IMG/VR virus record: IMGVR_UViG_3300043466_002666
DNA from: a virus
Strand: one strand, 5' to 3'
DNA: 64,000 bases
Part shown: piece by piece, positions 3,001 to 37,559 of the stretch
Numbering within the stretch: position 1 is the first letter of the stretch
How the letters are laid out: every line of letters begins with the position of its first letter
The notes under the pieces: model-generated
Databases searched by the model: none
Seen by the model: the letters and a program-made list of their open reading frames with translations, nothing else
What the model was told of the DNA's origin: nothing
Position numbers and translations under genes: made by a program

Positions 3001-6000
3001 GAGTTACTCTATAGCTATTTGCATAGTTGATAAATACCTTTCTACCTCTTGTATCCATTCCAGAGCCACTAAGTCTATAACCAGAGCCAGCTTGAGATAG
3101 GTTGTACTTAGCAATTCTTTCAAATTCTTGGTCACTTACGAATCCAGTAGTTCTTCTTCTATCTTGACCAATTGTAACACCATCAATTGTAAATACCTGA
3201 CCATCAAGTAATGCATAACCATTAATATCTGCATAGCTAAATCCAGAGAATGCACCGAGAACTGAAGAATTTGCTCCAGAGTTATCTGGGTGTGATGCAA
3301 CTGCAGAAGCATTCACTTCAAGTAGATAGTATCTTTCATTCTGCCTACCATAAAGTCTTCTAAAACCGTTGGGGAATACTGGAACTGTTATACTATACTC
3401 TTCATTATTATTTCCAATTTGTACAGTGATTGAAGTATGCTTTGCCATATCAAACCACTGTGGGTAGATCTTCTTGGCAGGAACAATTGAACCAACTGTA
3501 ATTGTAATGTTATTTGAAGAGCTTCCTCCGAGTGAGGTGCCTGGAATTGTTAGAATATCTCCAATTTTATATCCAGAACCTGGAGTTGCAACTGTTACTG
3601 ATGTATATGCACCACCACTTCTAGTTACATTAAAGGTTGCTCCTGTTGAACCTGCGGTGCCACCTGTAGCAGCAACTGCAAGATAAGTTTGATCTCCAGT
3701 AACTGCAAAACCAAGTCTGCTGAAGGAGTTAACTCCGCCGAATGATGCACTTGGATTTAGGTCAATTACGAGGTTGATTGTATCTCTCTGATATCCCGCA
3801 ACGATACCAAAGATTTCTGGAGTATCGAATTCTGTATCATCATAACCTTCACCAGATGAAGTATATGACTTGGGTAGGAATTCTCTTCTCTTCTCTAGAC
3901 ACCAGTTGTAAGTTAGTGAAACAAACTCATCACCATCACGGTTGGTAAATACTAGATATACACCATCAGATAGATTGGTTGCAGATGTAAAATCAATATC
4001 CTCATCAGCAGAAGATCTTCCATCAGTTGGATCATATAGAGCACAAATAAGTTCAATTCCTGTCAAAGTAGAACCACTAATTACTTTTTTGACATCAAGA
4101 ACTTTTGTCTTCTTGGTTGATGCAGTTACACTTCCGGTTGTTGCATTTGGGAAGTAATACATGGTTGTGCCAGGAATTACATAATCTCTTAACCAATTAA
4201 ATTTCTGTAAATCAGAAGAAGTTGTGAAGTTAGATGCAGTGAATACAAACTTGATAAATCTTGAATCTTTTGAAATAAAAGTTGTTGAGTCTACAGTTGG
4301 ATTTACAATAGCACCAGAAGCATCAGTTAGAGTTTGATTATTCACATAGTATGAGAACAGACCCTTACCTGCAGATGCAGAATTATAAGTTGTATGGAAT
4401 GCAAGACCACCTTGAATATTTGCAGTTGATGCAGGGAATCCAGCAGATTGTTTTACATACCATGCCTTTCTAACTCTTCTTCTTGCAACGATTGTTGAAG
4501 GATCTGATGAGTAAGAATTATCAAGAATTTCATTTCTTGTAATTGCTTCGTTTAGACCTAGGAAGTGAATATTGGAAATGTTTAGTCCGCCAGTCGAGGT
4601 AATGTTGTCTCCAATGCTTGAAACATAGAGGTTATCAGTTCTTCCTCCCCAGGTATTTGAGAATCCAGGACTTCTGAAGAAGCTTACAGAGTCTCCAGAC
4701 TTAACTTCACTTAGGGAGTATCCGCCAATTCTACCAGCAGATCTCTTAGCGAATTCTTTAGAGTACTGTTCACTAGTTGATTGTACACCGGAACCATTGA
4801 TGACTAGTTTACATGGGAAGTTAGCACCAGTTAGTCTGTAATATCCAGGCTTCATGATGAGTTCCACTTCATCATTTGGACCAAATGATTGATCAGTTGC
4901 AAATTTAGCAACCTGAGTTAGATTTTCAAATGGTTGGAAAGTCTTAACAGCACGCTTAGTTTGTAGGTTTGCACCTAGAGCCTTAGATGTAACTGGGTTT
5001 GGAACAATTGAATCTGTATACTTAGTATCAATATCGCCAGTGTATGGAACTGGTTTCTGTGGTAGAGTATATAGAGTTGCACTTTCAATGTCTACATCTT
5101 CACTGATTGATTCTACATCTGGAATAAATGCAGTCTCAAATGTCCACTTATCTCCATAAGATGCATAAGTTTGACAACCAGTAAAGAAGATTTTGGTAGC
5201 TGAATCATCAATATAAGTTACATTGTTATCTCCACTTGATTGAGTATCAACTCTTCTGAGTAAGCAAAGTTGATTTGCAAAAGATGAAGTCTTGAAGTAG
5301 ATGAATGTAGTATATCTTACATTTCCAGAAACACTGTTTCTGATTGTTACTGCACCTCTTGTTGGAATTGCATTCCAGAAGTTTGAATCAACGGAGATTC
5401 TTACCGAGGTATCTCTTACAGGAGTGTCAACAATATTAGATGCAACATTTTGACCTAAAGTTCCTCTTACATATTGTGTATCAGCAATTGCAACATCATC
5501 GCCAATTACTGAAAGTACAGATGAATAATTCCTTAGAATTGTATGTAGATTGTACTGTGAAGATTTTGGAAGTACACTAGTTACATAGTCATAATATGAC
5601 ATGTAGTTTTGTGTTGATGAAATACTAATAGTATTATTAGTGTAATCTATATCATCATACTGTAGAGAAATATTAATTGTTGGATTGAAGTAGTACTTAA
5701 CTCCACCAACAGTTACATAGTCTTCAGAAGTAACTTGAGCAAGAGTCATTTCAAGATCAATTCTACCAAATGGAGGCATACCACTTGTATCAACAAGTCT
5801 TAGTCTATCAATTGCATAGAATGTTCCATTAGATACTGTGGAGAATGTAGCTCCAGTTAGAGTTACTTGAGTTCCACTATCTACTGTTGCAATGGTTGCT
5901 TCTCCAACGATGCCTACACCAGTTAGATTTGCAATCTTCATTCCAGGATACATTGCTGCAGTGCTTGAAATACCACTTAGAATACCACCAGTGGTTAGAC

Positions 6001-9000
6001 TTGCATTAAATGTAGTTGGAACAGTTAAACCAGTTACTGAGTCTAATTGAACAGAGTTTAGGAATGTTCTGCTTAATGGTTCAATATAAATTCTATTGTT
6101 GTCTAGGTTCACATTAGATGCAGATAGAATCTTCTTCTTGATTCTCCATGCATCGAGGAACTTAGGTGAAACATAGAGTCGATCATTGGTATCAGTTGCA
6201 ATATATCCAGTTTTCTCTGGTCTTGCACCCTTAGTGAAACCATAACCTTCTGGACCACCTTCTGGGAACTTCTCGCCATTGAGAATCTTATTGTTCGCAA
6301 TGAACATTCTATCTGTTACATACAGAGTCTGAATGTTAGCTCTGTCAGAAACAGTCAGTCTTGCAGTAGTAAAGAAGTTTGATAGGCCCTTGAGTAAGTT
6401 CTGTGATGCAGTGTTTCTTGCAGTAGTTGCAATTACATTGATAACAGTGTTGGCAATTCTGTTCTCAATATCTGATACATCAACACTATTAGATTCTGAA
6501 GATTTACGAACCTTAGGAACATTAAGTGTAGTGGATGACTGACCACCTGCCTGAATAACTTGGTTTCCAATGTAGAAGTCACCTTGAGAGTTTGTACCAG
6601 ATGAAGCAACGAAACCACCTGCGTTTTCGTAACCTTGAACGATGAACTGTTCGTATGCTTTGAGAACTCTAGTCTGTAGATTTGGGAAACCAGTTGAGTA
6701 GTTACCGGGACCAATACCGATATATTCCCAAGTGTGTGAAGAAGCACGGAGAATAGATGGTCTATAAAGTGGTATAGTTGGTGCAAGTGAGAGTAAAGTA
6801 TCTGATTCGTTGTCTACTGTAGCTCCGCTAGAAATTGATGTGGTGCTTGAAAATACACAAACAATCTTTCTTGATTCTTCATCAGATTGAATACCATAAG
6901 CGTTATCATCTGCAGATGCACTAAATGTTCTGCCAGAACCAATTCTATAACTGCTTCCATAGGTATTGAATGAAGTTGAGATAGTTGAGAAGCTGGCCTT
7001 ACCACTTCTGCTATCCCATGCAGCAACTGGTGCGACATCAATTGAAGTAGTAGTTGCAGCGTCTCTGGTTGCATAGCAAAGATTGAGTGCTCGTACAAGT
7101 CTATGGGCTGCTTCTGCAGTTACAGAAGTCATTGCAGGAACTTCTGCAAATGGAGTACCAGACTGACCACTATGATAATACTTTTTGTTTGGAACAGAAA
7201 CATCTTTTGCTCTATATCCACCAGTATTTGCACCATTGCCAAATACATATTCAACCATACAACGGGAATCCATTTGTGGTGGGTTCCAGAGTACTCTTGG
7301 GTTGGTAATATTTCCTTCTTCGTTGGTTGATGGATATAAGTAGTTTATATTAGACTGTACTCTATAATTGTTATCATTTCTGTAAAGCTCAGAAAGATTA
7401 TCTGCAACAATTGTCTGAAATTCGTCATCACGGGTGATAGTGACAGGAGTATTCTTGTAATTTCCAATGTCTCCATCAACAAATCTATCAATATCTGCTC
7501 TAAGAATAGTTAGATAGTATACTCCATCACGAATTCCTCTTTCCCAAGAATCAATTTCTTGGACATCATAAACCATGAAACGATAATTTGCATATGGAAT
7601 TCCATCTGGATCATTTCCGCCAGCAGTTCCTTTAATGATAAATCTTTTTTCAGGTGGCTTTGGAGTTACTGCAGTGGTTTTAGGAATTACATACTTAACT
7701 CTCCAGAGAAGATCATTTGGAACAGATCCTCTGGTATCTACAAACTTAGCAGAAGTCACTGAGCCAGGGAATGATTCCCAATAGGTTAGAACATTAATAT
7801 CTTCAGTAACTGAAACTACTTGGCTGCTTCCATCAGCAAGAGTTTCAGTTTTGGTGGTAAATTGAGTTTCAATAGTTTGTGAGAATAGGAAGTCAGAAAC
7901 ATATGTTCTTGATGAAGCATATGTAGGATTAATTTTTAGATATACTTTCTGTCTTGCAGGATCCCAGAAATAACCAATACGCTGATTATTATTTGGAACT
8001 TGGGAAGTTGAATCTCCAGTACCAGCAGTTAGCTGTAGAACTGCTTCATAAGTTGAAATGCCACCATTAGCATTGTCTACTTGGTTTGCAATTTTACAAT
8101 CTGCTTCTGCAAGTAAACCAGTTGCAGTATAGTATTCTCTGAAGAGATTGTAGTTATTGTTTGCACCGAAGGTTAGGAATCTCTTGGTTATAGTAGAACC
8201 ATTATTAACATCAGTGGTTTCAATTACAAGTTCTGGAATGTCATCTTCGCTGAGAACTCCAGGAATATCCAGATATACTTTAAATGAGTTGCCAGTTGCT
8301 GAGCTAAAGTTAATTTTTGCTTGCTTCCAATCTTGTTCTGCCTTTGTAGCAGATTCACCTAGGTTTGCTCTCCAAGTCTCTGTAGCATTAATTGGGTATA
8401 ATTCAGTGAACTGTGAAGTTCTATTGATACCTGCAGGTGGAATGAGTGCAGTAATCTTACCAGATGCAGATGGAGGATCGACCTGGAACTTATTACCAAC
8501 TGCTCTGAGTGAAATTTGACCGAAGTTGGAGTTAGAGTTGGTGATAGACATATCACCACCATTAACTGCCAAAAATTGATCAGCGTAACCAACAGCAAAA
8601 ACAGATACTACCTGAATGAAAGCTCCGTTGGATGCTTTGATGTGGAAATGTCTCCAATCATGCTTATACTCAGCATCTGGATCTGCATAGATTGGACCTC
8701 TGTTTGATGCAGAATCATCTTGAGTTGCGATGTTGCGTACTGTATCACCAGCTGCAAATGTAGTTCCAGAATCTGTGTAAACCTTACCAGTTGCGTTTCT
8801 TGGTTGCCAGTATGCAGTTGGATCTTTCTGTAGTGAGATACCAGTGAACTGAGCAACAACCATGGACTTGAAGCTACTCTCTTTTACTTTACTGCCATCG
8901 GTATGCATACCGCAAAGACCGAGGACAGAGCGAAGTGAGCAGTTGAAGATGTATGGTGAGCAAGAGTTTACAGTATCAATAGTAGTCTTTCTTGAAGAAT

Positions 9001-34549: not shown

Positions 34550-34912
34550 TTAACTTCTTGTTTTTAAGTACTCTACTGCCTTATATAGGCCACTAAGATT
34601 ATCGCCAAGATTTCCTAATCCAACATTACATGGATCGCAAATCCATCCACGAAACTTTCCAGTATCATGGCAGTGATCAAGAACAATTTTTTTGTTGTGT
34701 GGGGGTGTCTTGCCACACAGATCACATACCTCTGGTTTTGGTGGTGCCGTTTTTTTCAATTGATACCGAAGTTTACTTTGCTCGCTAATACATGTTCTAC
34801 ACCTAGTATCATGCCTATCCTTATGTCCACGATGTCCAGGAAACTCAGACAGTTTTTTCGTTTTATTGCAATAGACACATGATTTAGTTTTTAATTCATC
34901 AATAATCTCCAT
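34550..34912 (-). CDS. Free-standing endonuclease VII-family (His-Me) homing endonuclease #2
   Basis: CVYC...CRTC zinc module and CDLCG...VLDHCHDTGKFRGWICDPCNVGLG; start revised to MEIID, downstream of the promoter at 34941-34969. Confidence 0.85.
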   Translation of the reverse strand: MEIIDELKTKSCVYCNKTKKLSEFPGHRGHKDRHDTRCRTCISEQSKLRYQLKKTAPPKPEVCDLCGKTPPHNKKIVLDHCHDTGKFRGWICDPCNVGLGNLGDNLSGLYKAVEYLKTRS

Positions 34913-34940
34913 AGGCACCGGAGGCTTTGGTTGCTCTAGC

Positions 34941-34969
34941 ATCATAGCATGGTTTTCAGGGCTTGTCAA
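34941..34969 (-). promoter_or_regulatory. Sigma70-type promoter for endonuclease #2
   Basis: TTGACA-17-TATGAT with extended TG. Confidence 0.7.
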
Positions 34970-35391
34970 GTGCCCTTGAGGTACTCGACCATTGCTTGGA
35001 GAGTACTGATGTTGTCCCCTACAAGACCAAGAGCAGTATTGCAGTGGTGACATAATAGTTTTCGTACTTTACCAGTAGAATGGCAATGATCTACACACAG
35101 TTTTTTCCATTTACCATTTCCTTCATTGCCACAAATAGCACAAAGACCTTCTTGTTCCTCATACATTTTAGTATGCTCGTCAAGAGTTATGCCATAGTTT
35201 CTTTTCAAATCATTATTTCGGGTACGTTCTGGATTTTCCTTGTGTCTAGATTTTACCCTTTCTTTATCACACTCTTTGCAAGATGAATGACGAACTCCAG
35301 TTTTTTTATTGCGAACATAAAACTCAGTAGCAAATTTTTCATCACCACAAGTCATACAAGTTCTATACAAATCAGAATACAATTTAGTCAT
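34966..35391 (-). CDS. F-CphI-like free-standing endonuclease VII-family homing endonuclease #1
   Basis: CMTC...CKEC, YGITL...Q.G.CAICG...LCVDHCHSTGKVRKLLCHHCNTALG; immediately downstream of psbA. Confidence 0.9.
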   Translation of the reverse strand: MTKLYSDLYRTCMTCGDEKFATEFYVRNKKTGVRHSSCKECDKERVKSRHKENPERTRNNDLKRNYGITLDEHTKMYEEQEGLCAICGNEGNGKWKKLCVDHCHSTGKVRKLLCHHCNTALGLVGDNISTLQAMVEYLKGT

Positions 35392-35415
35392 TTCGTGCTT
35401 TCTTTCGTGCTTAAT

Positions 35416-35448
35416 TATTTATAAAAAAGGAACTCCGAAGAGTTCCTT
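35416..35448 (-). terminator. psbA terminator overlapping a late promoter for the endonuclease
   Basis: GGAACTC-TTCG-GAGTTCC hairpin plus T6 running into TATAAATA (35416-35423). Confidence 0.85.
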
Positions 35449-35457
35449 AACATTATA

Positions 35458-37463
35458 TCAACCGATGGTTGGAGCAGTCAAGGCAACTGGTGTTGCTTCA
35501 ACTGATGCAAGGTCAAGAGGGAAATTGTGGGCATTCTTGTAAACCTCTTGAAAGTCTGATATTGCTATCAGGATTGGACTATATCATCACCAGTTCTGGT
35601 GTCGGAAGCTCTAGCCTGTTATTAAGGGGACTAAACCCCTCAGGTAGTCTCTGAACCTTTCCTAGATGCATCTAGGACTTGGCTGCTGATTGCCCGCTTG
35701 GGGTTTCCAGCAATTCATCCGATTTAAAGAGCGCAATACCCAAATCTACGCTCATGCATTACCTCCATACCGAGTCCACCACGATTCAGAATGTCTGCCC
35801 ATGTATTAATTACATGACCCTGACTATCTTGAATTGACTGGTTGAAGTTGAAGCCATTCAGGTTGAATGCCATCGTGCTAACTCCCAGAGCAGTGAACCA
35901 AATACCAACGACAGGCCAAGCAGCCAGAAAGAAATGTAGAGAGCGAGAGTTGTTGAAGGACGCATATTGGAAAATCAAACGACCAAAATAACCATGAGCA
36001 GCTACAATGTTGTAGGTTTCTTCTTCTTGTCCGAACTTGTAGCCGTAGTTCTGTGACTCATTTTCTGTCGTCTCACGTACAAGACTAGAGGTGACAAGAG
36101 ATCCGTGCATAGCAGAGAAAAGAGAACCACCGAAGACACCAGCAACTCCCAGCATATGGAAAGGGTGCATAAGAATGTTGTGTTCCGCCTGGAAAACAAG
36201 CATGTAGTTGAAAGTTCCTGAAATCCCCAGAGGCATTGCATCAGAGAAGGATCCTTGACCGAAGGGATAGACCAGGAACACTGCACTAGCAGCAGCAACG
36301 GGTGCAGAGTAGGCAACACAAATCCAAGGACGCATACCCAGTCGGTAAGATAGTTCCCATTCACGACCCATGTAGGCATAGATACCAATTAGAAAGTGGA
36401 AGACGACCAATTGAAATGGTCCACCATTATATAGCCATTCATCGAGAGAAGCAGCTTCCCAGATGGGATAGAAGTGCAGACCGATAGCATTGCTAGAAGG
36501 AACAACAGCACCAGAAATGATGTTGTTTCCATACATTAGTGACCCAGCAACTGGTTCACGAATCCCGTCGCTTACACCTAACAAACAACCATATCTTTTG
36601 ACTTAGGTTGCTTCTGTTGACGAATTTGATTTGCTCGTTTTGCGTTTTCTACTCTTCCACCATTCTCTACCCACTCTTTCCAAGTTTGTAGATGAGAAAT
36701 ACATTCTTTTATCCTCTCTCCTCGTCTTACTCCCATATAAGGAAGTATTTGTTGTAGAATGGATAAAACTTTTTCTTTTTCTCCGATGTGAAGTGTATAA
36801 ACTTGCTTTCCTTTTACAGTTTTTCTTGATGGTGAGAAGTATGATTTATCTAAAAGTTTACTCAACCTTTGGATAATATCTTCATCTACCATAGAAATTT
36901 TGATAAAAGGTGCTGGTGGAGTATTAGAAACTTCGTAACGGTCTTTGGAACGATTGTCTATTCCAAAGTATCCTTCACCTTCTAATAAACCAGCAATCCA
37001 AGCAACATCAGTTTCAGTTAAGTCTAACATTTTAATCTTGCGTCTTCTGTACTATTTATACAGCATTAGCAAGAAAAAGTCAACAGTAGATGTGTGGACT
37101 ATATCTTCACCCTTCAAAGAAGGGGCTGGGCACTTAAACCTGTTATTAAGGGGACTAAACCCCTCAGGTAGTCTCTGAACCTTCCTCAAGTGTACTTGAG
37201 GCTTGGCTGCTGATTGCCTTTCGGTTTCCAGCAATTCACCCAGTTTCGTCAATACTCTTACGAGTAAGGGACACCGATTAGTTAATGTCTACGGGAGGAG
37301 CAGCAATGAAAGCAACAATGAAACAAATAGTAGCAGCAAGAAGGGTAGGAATCATTAGAGTTCCGAACCAACCGACATAGAGACGGTTATCGGTAGAAGT
37401 TACCCACTCACAGAATTGTTCCCAAGTGTTACTTCCACGCTGTTGAGCGAGGGTAGCAGTCAT
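35458..37463 (-). CDS. psbA: Photosystem II D1 protein, three exons: 37463-37285, 36570-35748, 35535-35458 (359 aa)
   Basis: Exons of 179+823+78 nt sum to 1080 nt and join in frame to restore PPVDIDGIREPV and [15 protein letters not shown]. Confidence 0.97.
35536..35747 (-). mobile_element. Group I intron (212 nt, ORF-less) after psbA codon 334
   Basis: 5' exon ends in U; P1 GAGCGU/GCGCUC; P10 AAUGCCCA/UGGGUAUU; core AAUUGCUGGAAA, AAUCAGCAG, UCAGAGACUA, GAUAUAGUCC; terminal G. Confidence 0.95.
36571..37284 (-). mobile_element. Group I intron (714 nt) within psbA codon 60, carrying a homing endonuclease ORF
   Basis: P1 GACAU/GUGUC with U-G at the splice site; same core elements as the other intron; ACAUCUA/UAGGUGU stem encloses the ORF; terminal G at 36571. 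Confidence 0.95.
36578..37030 (-). CDS. Intron-encoded single-motif LAGLIDADG homing endonuclease
   Basis: [14 protein letters not shown] motif, then [11 protein letters not shown]...YTLHI...ILPYM..RR; own late promoter TATAAATA at 37053-37060. Confidence 0.85.
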
Positions 37464-37483: not shown

Positions 37484-37559
37484 TTTGTAAAAATATGTTA
37501 AGGAATGTGTTGATTCCTTAACACTTATTTATAGTAGCACGCCCCCTCAAATTTGTCAA
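37484..37559 (-). promoter_or_regulatory. psbA control region: overlapping sigma70 and late promoters, 5' hairpin, HLR1-like box
   Basis: TTGACA-17-TACTAT (37559-37531) overlapping TATAAATA (37533-37526); 11-bp inverted repeat at 37496-37523; TTAACATA-TT-TTTACAAA at 37501-37484. Confidence 0.75.

Follow-up and report, generated by a model that had tools for sequence, protein, structure and literature searches.

Here we describe a psbA gene, which encodes the photosystem II protein D1, split by two group I introns in a 64,000-nucleotide (nt) stretch of viral DNA, IMG/VR record IMGVR_UViG_3300043466_002666, which in its entirety we call the window. The first intron, inserted after coding nucleotide 179, contains a gene for a LAGLIDADG homing endonuclease, while the second, inserted after coding nucleotide 1002, lacks an open reading frame (ORF) and is followed downstream by two free-standing nuclease genes that we term EndoA and EndoB. 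We consider it likely that selfish group IA introns with two different homing strategies have entered this gene, the psbA of a divergent T4-like cyanomyovirus, on two occasions. We build this view on what can be read directly from the locus and its relatives, namely its anatomy, the conserved and covarying structure of both intron RNAs, the homology of its parts, purifying selection on the LAGLIDADG gene, and a series of alleles in related genomes. An earlier reading of this DNA from its sequence alone, here called the original prediction, had proposed that classical and collaborative homing coexist in this one gene, that three endonucleases serve it, and that the arrangement is unusual. The anatomy, covariation, homology and allele series described below point to an intron of the classical kind, bearing its own endonuclease gene, and one of the collaborative kind known from cyanophage S-PM2 and its nuclease F-CphI; the other two proposals fared less well.

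Exon structure of the interrupted psbA

The gene occupies the minus strand from 37463 to 35458 and consists of the following parts:

37285-37463, minus strand: psbA exon 1, 179 nt; coding nt 1-179, D1 residues 1-59 and two bases of the Ile60 codon
36571-37284, minus strand: intron 1, group IA, 714 nt, after coding nt 179; its core is the first ~210 nt and its terminal G lies at 36571
35748-36570, minus strand: psbA exon 2, 823 nt; coding nt 180-1002, D1 residues 60-334
35536-35747, minus strand: intron 2, ORF-less group IA, 212 nt, after coding nt 1002; orthologue of the S-PM2 psbA intron
35458-35535, minus strand: psbA exon 3, 78 nt including the stop codon; D1 residues 335-359

Joined in order, the three exons form a 1080-nt sequence that translates without interruption into a D1 protein of 359 amino acids (aa), and the positions and lengths originally given for the introns (714 nt after nt 179, 212 nt after nt 1002) are exact. 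When the spliced D1 was compared by tblastn with 29 loci, it proved 94% identical to the D1 of S-PM2 in a gap-free alignment, and 98% identical to that of contig L003 (related contigs are cited by our locus numbers). Residues D342 and A344, which belong to the region of the Mn cluster and of C-terminal processing, are encoded in exon 3, as is the conserved NFPLDLA C-terminal region. Unspliced RNA meets a stop within a few codons at either junction, as had been foreseen: with intron 1 retained the frame reads ...PPVDIN and terminates two codons after codon 60, and with intron 2 retained it continues for seven codons after Arg334 and terminates at the eighth intron codon. As stops follow both 5' splice sites and exon 3 encodes NFPLDLA, functional D1 needs both splicing events, and D1 would be made only from RNA spliced at both sites.

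Could this layout, with its two introns and three nucleases, be an assembly chimera of co-occurring strains, or could the psbA be dead? We regard this as barely credible. A repeat shared by the two introns (86% identity over 80 nt, with ~45 identical bases) could mislead an assembler, and the similarity between the window and L003 does shift abruptly at coding nt 975. However, the full layout is found in two independent contigs (L161 and L162), and intron 1, intron 2 and EndoA occur together in three more (L006, L014 and L019); the breakpoints lie away from the shared repeat, and the exons are intact and 98% identical to those of relatives, with mostly synonymous differences.

The repeat itself is direct, with copies at 35615-35694 and 37139-37218 that lie 1524 nt apart in the same orientation and run from P7 to P7.1. 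Recombination between the two copies would delete exon 2.

The nuclease-bearing intron at site 179

Intron 1 matches the Rfam group I intron family RF00028 at 37294-37078 with 66.3 bits, against a gathering score of 50; its group IA label rests on an IA-type P7.1 extension. The elements considered in this section are:

37270-37289, minus strand: P1 and P10 guide of intron 1, from a structure alignment of 17 sequences
36578-37030, minus strand: LAGLIDADG homing endonuclease gene, 150 aa with a single motif, identified from Pfam, a structure model and the ratio of nonsynonymous to synonymous substitution rates (dN/dS)
37037-37073, minus strand: hairpin containing TATAAATA, the T4-type late-promoter consensus, at 37060-37053, 22 nt before the LAGLIDADG ATG

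The alignment comprised 16 phage copies and one plastid copy, with P1 to P10 written out by hand. P1 is formed by exon bases GACAU (37289-37285) and intron bases GUGUC (37274-37270; intron positions 11-15), places a U.G pair at the splice site, and is invariant in 17 of the 17 sequences. P10 comprises 3 bp, in which UCG (37277-37275; intron 8-10) pairs with the first bases of exon 2, CGA (36570-36568); it is fully paired in all 17 and contains one compensatory change from G-C to U-A, where in L019 the exon C has become A and the guide G has become U. Across the alignment, 98.7% of the cells of the 72 proposed pairs are paired and 23 pairs have changed on both sides, with compensatory changes in P2, P6a, P7.1, P8, P9 and P10. 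None of 500 shuffles reached any of the main measures, and slid partners were only 35-45% paired. Together with the corresponding results for intron 2, given below, these Rfam scores above threshold and the covariation bear out the proposal that P1, P10, the core and the terminal G are intact in both introns.

A junction one nucleotide further on, at nt 180 (ATT|GAC), would leave the protein unchanged. We rejected it: the intron would then end in C (A in L019), and the compensatory pair in P10 would be lost. The junction at 179 is preferred because all 17 homologues then have a terminal G and because the P10 compensatory change exists only there.

The ORF of intron 1 is bracketed by two helices, P9 (intron 192-198 with 705-711) and P9.1 (199-206 with 664-671), the strands of the latter being CUGUUGAC and GUCAACAG. 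Compensatory changes in P9.1 are found in L018 and L019, which share an identical change, and in L023 and L024. The last ~22 codons of the LAGLIDADG gene and its TAG stop overlap the 3' strands of P9.1 and P9, and are thus ribozyme sequence as well. In ORF-less relatives of the intron, which are 251-269 nt long, a loop of 1-6 nt caps P9.1, from which it follows that the ORF cassette is an insertion into the P9.1 loop. Each of the 16 phage copies has the TATAAATA hairpin, as does the free-standing gene copy in L026, and the algal copy and the ORF-less introns lack it; the hairpin belongs to the LAGLIDADG gene cassette. The ribozyme looks mosaic, with P1, P2, P3, P8 and P9 following the algal copy and P6a and P7.1 nearly identical to those of the phage site-1002 intron.

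The cassette encodes a protein in which E17, G18 and E19 are invariant among 53 homologues, and dN/dS among the phage copies is 0.06-0.26. An alignment-based AlphaFold2 model (pLDDT 87.5), with the alpha-beta-beta-alpha-beta-beta-alpha fold of I-CreI, was searched with Foldseek, and the best matches were I-CvuI, I-CreI and I-MsoI (TM 0.55-0.62, probability 1.00); the top 50 all belong to the LAGLIDADG family and are nearly all homing endonucleases, with the bI3 maturase in addition. Modelled as two copies, the protein scored 0.77, against 0.46 for the best of 3 controls, in a symmetric arrangement with its interface through the LAGLIDADG helix. Of 30 proteins whose solved structures are pairs of one chain, 20 reach the mark used for this score, as does 1 of 23 that were solved as single chains. 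At least 97% of contacts agreed between runs, with a partner pLDDT of at least 79; since similar dimers have already been solved, the pass may reflect known structures that the predictor had already learnt.

The candidate target is the intronless junction. At site 179 the joined exons read CCCGTAGAC^ATCGACGGG, a pseudo-palindrome with its dyad at nt 177|178, where 8 of 11 half-site positions match; this centre is tied among the top 3 of 1058 in the gene, and a perfect palindrome of 18 bp is possible with the codons for PVDIDG. The insertion site lies 2 nt 3' of the dyad and, judged by established LAGLIDADG enzymology, would coincide with the top-strand cut of an I-CreI-type 4-nt stagger. Another palindromic centre, at nt 498|499, is also among the three best in the gene and coincides with the site-499 intron of L024 (875 nt, with a 261-aa ORF that has no Pfam match), which hints at another dimeric nuclease target.

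In the mechanism that we propose, intron 1 would be a complete mobile intron, consisting of a ribozyme and a cassette of the TATAAATA hairpin and LAGLIDADG gene set in the hairpin loop of the P9 region, with the 3' strand of P9 returning the 3' splice site to the core. A LAGLIDADG homodimer would act on intronless alleles at the dyad with a 4-nt staggered cut, and repair of the break would copy intron 1 into the cut allele.

The site-1002 intron, its nuclease and the allele series

Intron 2 matches RF00028 at 35793-35555 with 84.0 bits, against the gathering score of 50. Its P1 pairs GAGCGU (35753-35748) with GCGCUC (35734-35729), again with U.G at the splice site; its P10, of 7 bp, pairs GGGUAUU (35741-35735) with AAUGCCC (35535-35529); and its last base, G212, is the terminal G. 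In an alignment of the window with six homologues including S-PM2, 94.5% of the structure is paired and 16 pairs have changed on both sides; no shuffle of 500 was as high, and slid controls stayed within 32-45% for both introns. The original prediction had recognised here the 212-nt intron that follows codon 334 in S-PM2, and both site and length are indeed equal, with 85.7% nucleotide identity across exon 2, the intron, exon 3, the intergenic region and the start of the nuclease gene. The S-PM2 psbA intron splices during infection, and its ratio of spliced to unspliced RNA responds to light (PMC5931967).

Downstream of exon 3, and partly overlapping it, are three further features:

34966-35391, minus strand: EndoA, free-standing F-CphI orthologue, 141 aa, Endo VII/DHHRN family; PF02945, E 8.9e-25
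34550-34945, minus strand: EndoB, second free-standing Endo VII/DHHRN gene, 131 aa from the M at 34945; PF02945, E 2.6e-17
35334-35531, plus strand: CfrI-like stretch, homologue of S-PM2s001, with ~90% identity to the annotated S-PM2 misc_RNA; a putative antisense RNA

EndoA is 79% identical to F-CphI and keeps D101, H102, H104, R110 and N118, in agreement with the D, H, H, R and N reported as the catalytic residues of F-CphI (PMC6083498). A copy of TATAAATA at 35423-35416 lies 24 nt upstream of the gene. The CfrI-like stretch spans exon 3, a terminator-like intergenic hairpin (35427-35448) and the 5' end of the EndoA gene; the antisense RNA CfrI of S-PM2 comes from Millard et al. 2010, as summarised in PMC12197685. 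By the summary in PMC6083498 of Zeng et al. 2009, the S-PM2 psbA intron and F-CphI take part in collaborative homing. Intron 2 and EndoA likewise occur together, in the window, L161, L162, L006, L014, L019, L042 and the isolate S-SRM01, and both are absent from L003. By analogy with S-PM2, EndoA would cut intronless psbA at the insertion site of intron 2, which would shield its own allele, and the intron and nuclease gene would move jointly by collaborative homing.

EndoB is only 31% identical to F-CphI, with all five DHHRN residues intact. Its relatives (82-99% identity) always lie downstream of psbA, whether the latter is intronless or intron-bearing. We were able to arrange the alleles found by their content: an intronless psbA with EndoB in L163, L165 and L168; intron 1 and EndoB, without intron 2 and EndoA, in L003; both introns with EndoA and EndoB in the window, L161 and L162; and both introns with EndoA in L006, L014 and L019. 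On this distribution EndoB is a resident free-standing gene of the phage lineage. We rejected it as the partner of either intron, as it stands beside intronless and intron-1-only psbA genes. Of the proposal that three endonucleases serve this gene, the three reading frames hold, while the service of all three does not, EndoB being found beside intronless psbA as well.

The intronless EndoB-linked alleles carry synonymous variants at both sites, with GTCGATAT|TGACGG at site 179 and, at site 1002, GAAAGG|AAC in L163 and L165 and GAACGC|AAC in L168. As a speculation, such insertion-site variants may confer resistance.

The window and L003 are colinear from window position 41026 to 35752, with 96.7% identity. 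Over the spliced coding sequence they differ at 6 positions in nt 1-974 and then at 26 in nt 975-1069, and similarity resumes at the EndoA stop codon. As exon 3 is just 77.6% identical between the two, it belongs to the divergent block. Because L003 lacks intron 2 and EndoA, and because its similarity to the window breaks at nt 975 and resumes at the EndoA stop, the window can be read as an L003-like genome with an imported block of ~800 nt that contains intron 2 and exon 3, together with 27 nt of exon 2 before them and the CfrI-like spacer and EndoA after them. The block thus starts 27 nt before the insertion site of intron 2 and ends with the EndoA stop codon, as would be expected of a break-initiated co-conversion tract left by a donor of S-PM2 type. 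In this scheme the intron 2/EndoA block would have been imported into a genome that already contained intron 1 and EndoB. Splicing, cleavage, late-promoter use and any competitive benefit are steps that we infer; by analogy, the intron-bearing allele would be protected in mixed infections. Downstream of the psbA region, L003 also contains a borderline tRNA-Sec match (6102-6187; 49 versus 47 bits).

Several observations weigh against this account or limit it. The LAGLIDADG protein passes Pfam PF14528 (LAGLIDADG_3) marginally, with 24.3 bits against a cut-off of 22.5. The palindrome at its candidate target partly follows from the PVDIDG codons, and its rank is modest (~p 0.02). The 9 copies of TATAAATA in the window do not significantly exceed the expected 5.9, and as the motif is not enriched overall, late-promoter use can only be presumed. 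EndoB is linked to psbA by position alone. Finally, as the comparison names no donor for the block, ordinary recombination could give the same mosaic.

We also weighed whether the introns are kept mainly for regulation of D1, with light-dependent splicing at two checkpoints and mobility secondary. The light response of the spliced-to-unspliced ratio in S-PM2 (PMC5931967) fits this idea, as does the fact that retention of either intron blocks translation; moreover, the CfrI-like stretch is ~90% conserved, against ~85% for the flanking coding sequence. However, L003, L163, L165 and L168, close relatives that share the backbone of the window, are without one intron or both, from which it follows that neither intron is required, and relatives differ freely in how many introns they have and where these lie. 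Nothing in the window sequence speaks to light control, and a regulatory role is in any case compatible with selfish introns. We judge regulation to be a very unlikely main reason for their presence.

The setting of the gene agrees with a phage origin. It is flanked by genes for phage lysozyme, hli, ferredoxin and an SLH-domain protein. Similarity of the window to GenBank cyanomyoviruses is weak at the nucleotide level, and the S-PM2 genome is distantly related outside the psbA region. On the minus strand, at 40684-44870, eight Rfam tRNA matches form an array, and among them lie two RNA motifs, manA (44140-44345, 118.5 bits) and wcaG (40684-40791). These flanking genes, the tRNA array with its RNA motifs and the weak similarity to GenBank cyanomyoviruses indicate that the window derives from a divergent T4-like cyanophage. 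Upstream of the gene lies one further feature:

37495-37559, minus strand: psbA upstream region with consensus matches to a sigma-70-like promoter (37559-37531), TATAAATA (37533-37526) and a 5'-untranslated region (UTR) inverted repeat (37524-37495)

Here TATAAATA precedes psbA by 62 nt. The inverted repeat, of 30 nt and directly 3' of the motif, resembles the S-PM2 psbA 5'-UTR hairpin, which is a 36-bp inverted repeat (PMC5931967). Sigma-70 promoter matches number 5 in the window where 6.9 are expected; for these and for TATAAATA alike, it is the placement, and not the frequency, that is suggestive. The Rfam PhotoRC-II motif, found upstream of psbA in many related loci, is below threshold in the window.

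Distribution of psbA introns and comparison with known systems

The original prediction had considered it unusual for a phage psbA to have a second, endonuclease-bearing intron at codon 60. Viral metagenomes proved to contain many a psbA split at Ile60: the exact site-179 junction pattern was found in 38 IMG/VR contigs, 34 of which are genuine psbA junctions, which sets the count at no fewer than 34, and the LAGLIDADG enzyme is encoded in 26 IMG/VR loci (76-99% identity) and matched by 112 protein clusters in a large protein collection. The remaining pattern hits (L049, L050, L057 and L059) were discarded as chance matches in GC-rich DNA that is not psbA. Nor is a second intron rare, for L161 and L162 share the layout of the window, other relatives have from 3 to ~7 introns in psbA, and S-SRM01 has three. 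Among GenBank phages, searched with megablast, blastn and tblastn, no record held intron 1 or a LAGLIDADG relative of at least 60% identity, a result that does not permit a claim of absence from isolates.

The 34 genuine contigs comprise 19 with the ORF, 11 without it, one with an ORF remnant and three in which the intron is cut by the contig end. The ORF-less introns (L042, L044, L045, L047, L054, L055, L062, L067, L069, L072 and L074) are 251-269 nt long where measured, and in the remnant, a 322-nt intron in L073, all that is left of the cassette is the promoter hairpin and ~24 codons from the end of the ORF. Between them, the full, ORF-less and remnant forms represent a homing cycle in its full, empty and decaying states.

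A LAGLIDADG cassette also exists outside any intron. In L026 (IMGVR_UViG_3300022752_000951), positions 3955-4480 hold a free-standing copy with 87% nucleotide identity and the TATAAATA hairpin, without a ribozyme; it lies directly downstream of an intronless, divergent psbA and mirrors the F-CphI arrangement. Further downstream of the psbA region of this contig there is a match to the glutamine riboswitch (7277-7335).

These forms bear on a further explanation, in which the introns are genuine and the nucleases no longer drive homing: the LAGLIDADG protein would act as a maturase, the Endo VII genes would be domesticated or decaying, and the present distribution would be a relic spread by phage recombination. 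Solved LAGLIDADG maturases do exist (I-AniI and bI3), and purifying selection on the LAGLIDADG gene fits a maturase as well as a nuclease; EndoB adjoins intronless psbA with no evident intron partner, and F-CphI-like copies in other cyanophages have lost catalytic residues (Sullivan et al., PMC3037559). Yet psbA genes that are otherwise intact still carry intron 1 in ORF-less versions, and for this reason the site-179 ribozyme appears not to need the protein. The acidic motif residues E17 and E19 are invariant in the 53 homologues, and EndoA and EndoB retain all five DHHRN residues. The block boundaries, one near the intron 2 site (27 nt away) and one at the stop codon of EndoA, are those that break-initiated co-conversion predicts, and the pattern of empty, full and remnant sites is that of the classic homing cycle. 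We therefore give the relic explanation a small share of our belief and continue to favour twofold colonisation by mobile introns.

Exchange of the site-179 allele can also be seen between close relatives. The D1 residues 61-335 of L161 and L162 are 100% identical to those of the window and EndoA and EndoB are 83-96% identical, while the site-179 LAGLIDADG proteins are 68-70% identical. As the LAGLIDADG protein has diverged and D1 is identical, the intron or nuclease allele has been exchanged independently of the host gene.

Beyond phages, intron 1 has relatives in plastids. The original prediction pointed to a green-algal chloroplast intron at or near psbA position 179, and rightly so: the Oedogonium cardiacum intron Oc.psbA.1 lies at site 179, belongs to subgroup IA1 and houses in L9 a 184-codon ORF for a LAGLIDADG protein with one motif (PMC2442088, Table 4). 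It shares with intron 1 the insertion site, the nuclease family, the number of motifs and the location of the ORF in the P9 region, and differs in its plastid rather than phage host and in the length of the ORF (184 versus 150 codons), the Oedogonium intron being compared here by its published description. We further identified a plastid-type contig, L029 (GCA_006365115.1), that encodes a D1 of 353 aa with a green-type N-terminus and has psaA and psaB nearby. A 730-nt intron (Rfam 50.9 bits) interrupts the psbA of this contig at nt 179, and its LAGLIDADG protein is 55% identical to the phage one (E 6e-46 database-wide). The two ribozymes align throughout and share the P1 guide GGUGUC and the P2, P3, P8 and P9 pairings with compensatory changes, whereas the L029 intron is without the TATAAATA hairpin, and the P6a/P7.1 periphery of phage intron 1 is nearer to that of the phage site-1002 intron.

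In contrast to these plastid relatives, LAGLIDADG genes found in prokaryotes were distant. A search of 185,579 prokaryote species, with one genome each and a single peptide pattern that is not exhaustive, returned no close LAGLIDADG gene; those found were 24-37% identical and came mainly from Actinomycetota and Chloroflexota, and of the 80 loci kept not one was cyanobacterial. In the literature searched, the metagenome psbA introns of Millard et al. 2010 excepted, neither a LAGLIDADG-bearing phage psbA intron nor kinship with plastids is described. At second hand, psbA introns are described as widespread in metagenomic libraries (PMC5931967).

The fetched loci contain psbA insertion sites at nt 179, 230, 276, ~317, 499, 548, 645, 750, ~890, 992, 1002, 1008 and ~1021. 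Nearly every one of these introns follows T and ends in G, with exceptions in the region 989-1011, where junctions are ambiguous. ORFs within them encode HNH (sites 276 and 645) and GIY-YIG (site 230) nucleases. Four to five Rfam-supported group I introns are found in the psbA genes of L021, L023, L024, L027, L013 and L044, and the last of these shows about seven gaps. Sites 179, 276, 548 and 645 coincide exactly with psbA sites of the Oedogonium chloroplast (PMC2442088). These four or more identical sites, together with an equal nuclease family at 179 (LAGLIDADG) and 276 (HNH), raise the possibility, which we advance tentatively and think less probable than its opposite, that cyanophage and green-algal chloroplast psbA genes draw on one shared, still-moving pool of group I introns. 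If this is true, plastids would receive introns from phages acting as a reservoir or vector, or the other way round. On this reading the window and its relatives would also record how one lineage acquired its introns in steps, from an intronless state to one with the site-179 intron and then to one with the site-1002 intron and its F-CphI.

While each component of this locus is of a known kind and the whole combination recurs in public data, the locus is useful in several respects. Among the auxiliary photosynthesis genes of marine and freshwater phages, psbA is the one known best, and it is widely used as a marker; with introns at many sites, it will be misannotated as fragments and missed by surveys based on the polymerase chain reaction (PCR). 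Here two textbook homing strategies stand next to each other in one gene, and natural alleles from before and after (L163, L003 and the window) allow the co-conversion tract of collaborative homing to be read directly. The LAGLIDADG intron links the phage and chloroplast pools and bears on the origin of organellar introns. Its free-standing, intron-embedded, ORF-less and remnant forms together offer a complete homing cycle for experiment, and the enzyme, at 150 aa, provides a new and compact scaffold of the I-CreI kind, with a target predicted to span 18-22 bp.

Among isolates, the cyanomyovirus S-SRM01 (L001, MW015081) is a close parallel in overall design. Between 1315 and 3717, its psbA has introns after nt 276 (with an HNH ORF), 750 and 1002, and the nuclease downstream is 83% identical to F-CphI. 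The record annotates two partial D1 coding sequences and leaves the last two exons unannotated, and the accompanying paper describes one intron and two partial psbA genes, ORF319-321 (PMC8557907); as cited there, S-CBWM1 has a psbA intron with a 633-bp nuclease ORF. Like the window, S-SRM01 is a case of a psbA with both nuclease-bearing and ORF-less introns and an F-CphI homologue downstream, and it is an isolated cyanomyovirus; unlike the window, its nuclease-bearing intron is of the HNH type at 276 instead of the LAGLIDADG type at 179. With S-PM2 the window shares the ORF-less 212-nt intron after nt 1002, a nuclease that is 79% identical and keeps DHHRN, and the CfrI stretch at ~90% identity. 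The window differs in its extra nuclease-bearing intron at nt 179 and its second Endo VII-family gene, and the rest of the genome is distant.

I-CreI, I-CvuI and I-MsoI are homodimeric single-motif enzymes of green-algal chloroplast rRNA introns. The LAGLIDADG protein of the window resembles them in its one LAGLIDADG helix, its acidic residues, its predicted symmetric dimer and its pseudo-palindromic candidate target, but is only 10-17% identical to them, and its predicted target is psbA where theirs is 23S rRNA. Phage T4 carries group IA introns in td, nrdB and nrdD (sunY), with I-TevI to I-TevIII, and free-standing Seg and Mob endonucleases (reviewed in PMC3984707). As in the window, the T4 introns are of group IA with P7.1/P7.2-type extras and have the nuclease ORF looped out of the ribozyme, I-TevI has a candidate late promoter and hairpin before its ORF, and intron-borne and free-standing nucleases occur in one genome. 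In contrast to the window, the T4 nucleases are of the GIY-YIG and HNH families, and its introns stand one per gene in genes of nucleotide metabolism.

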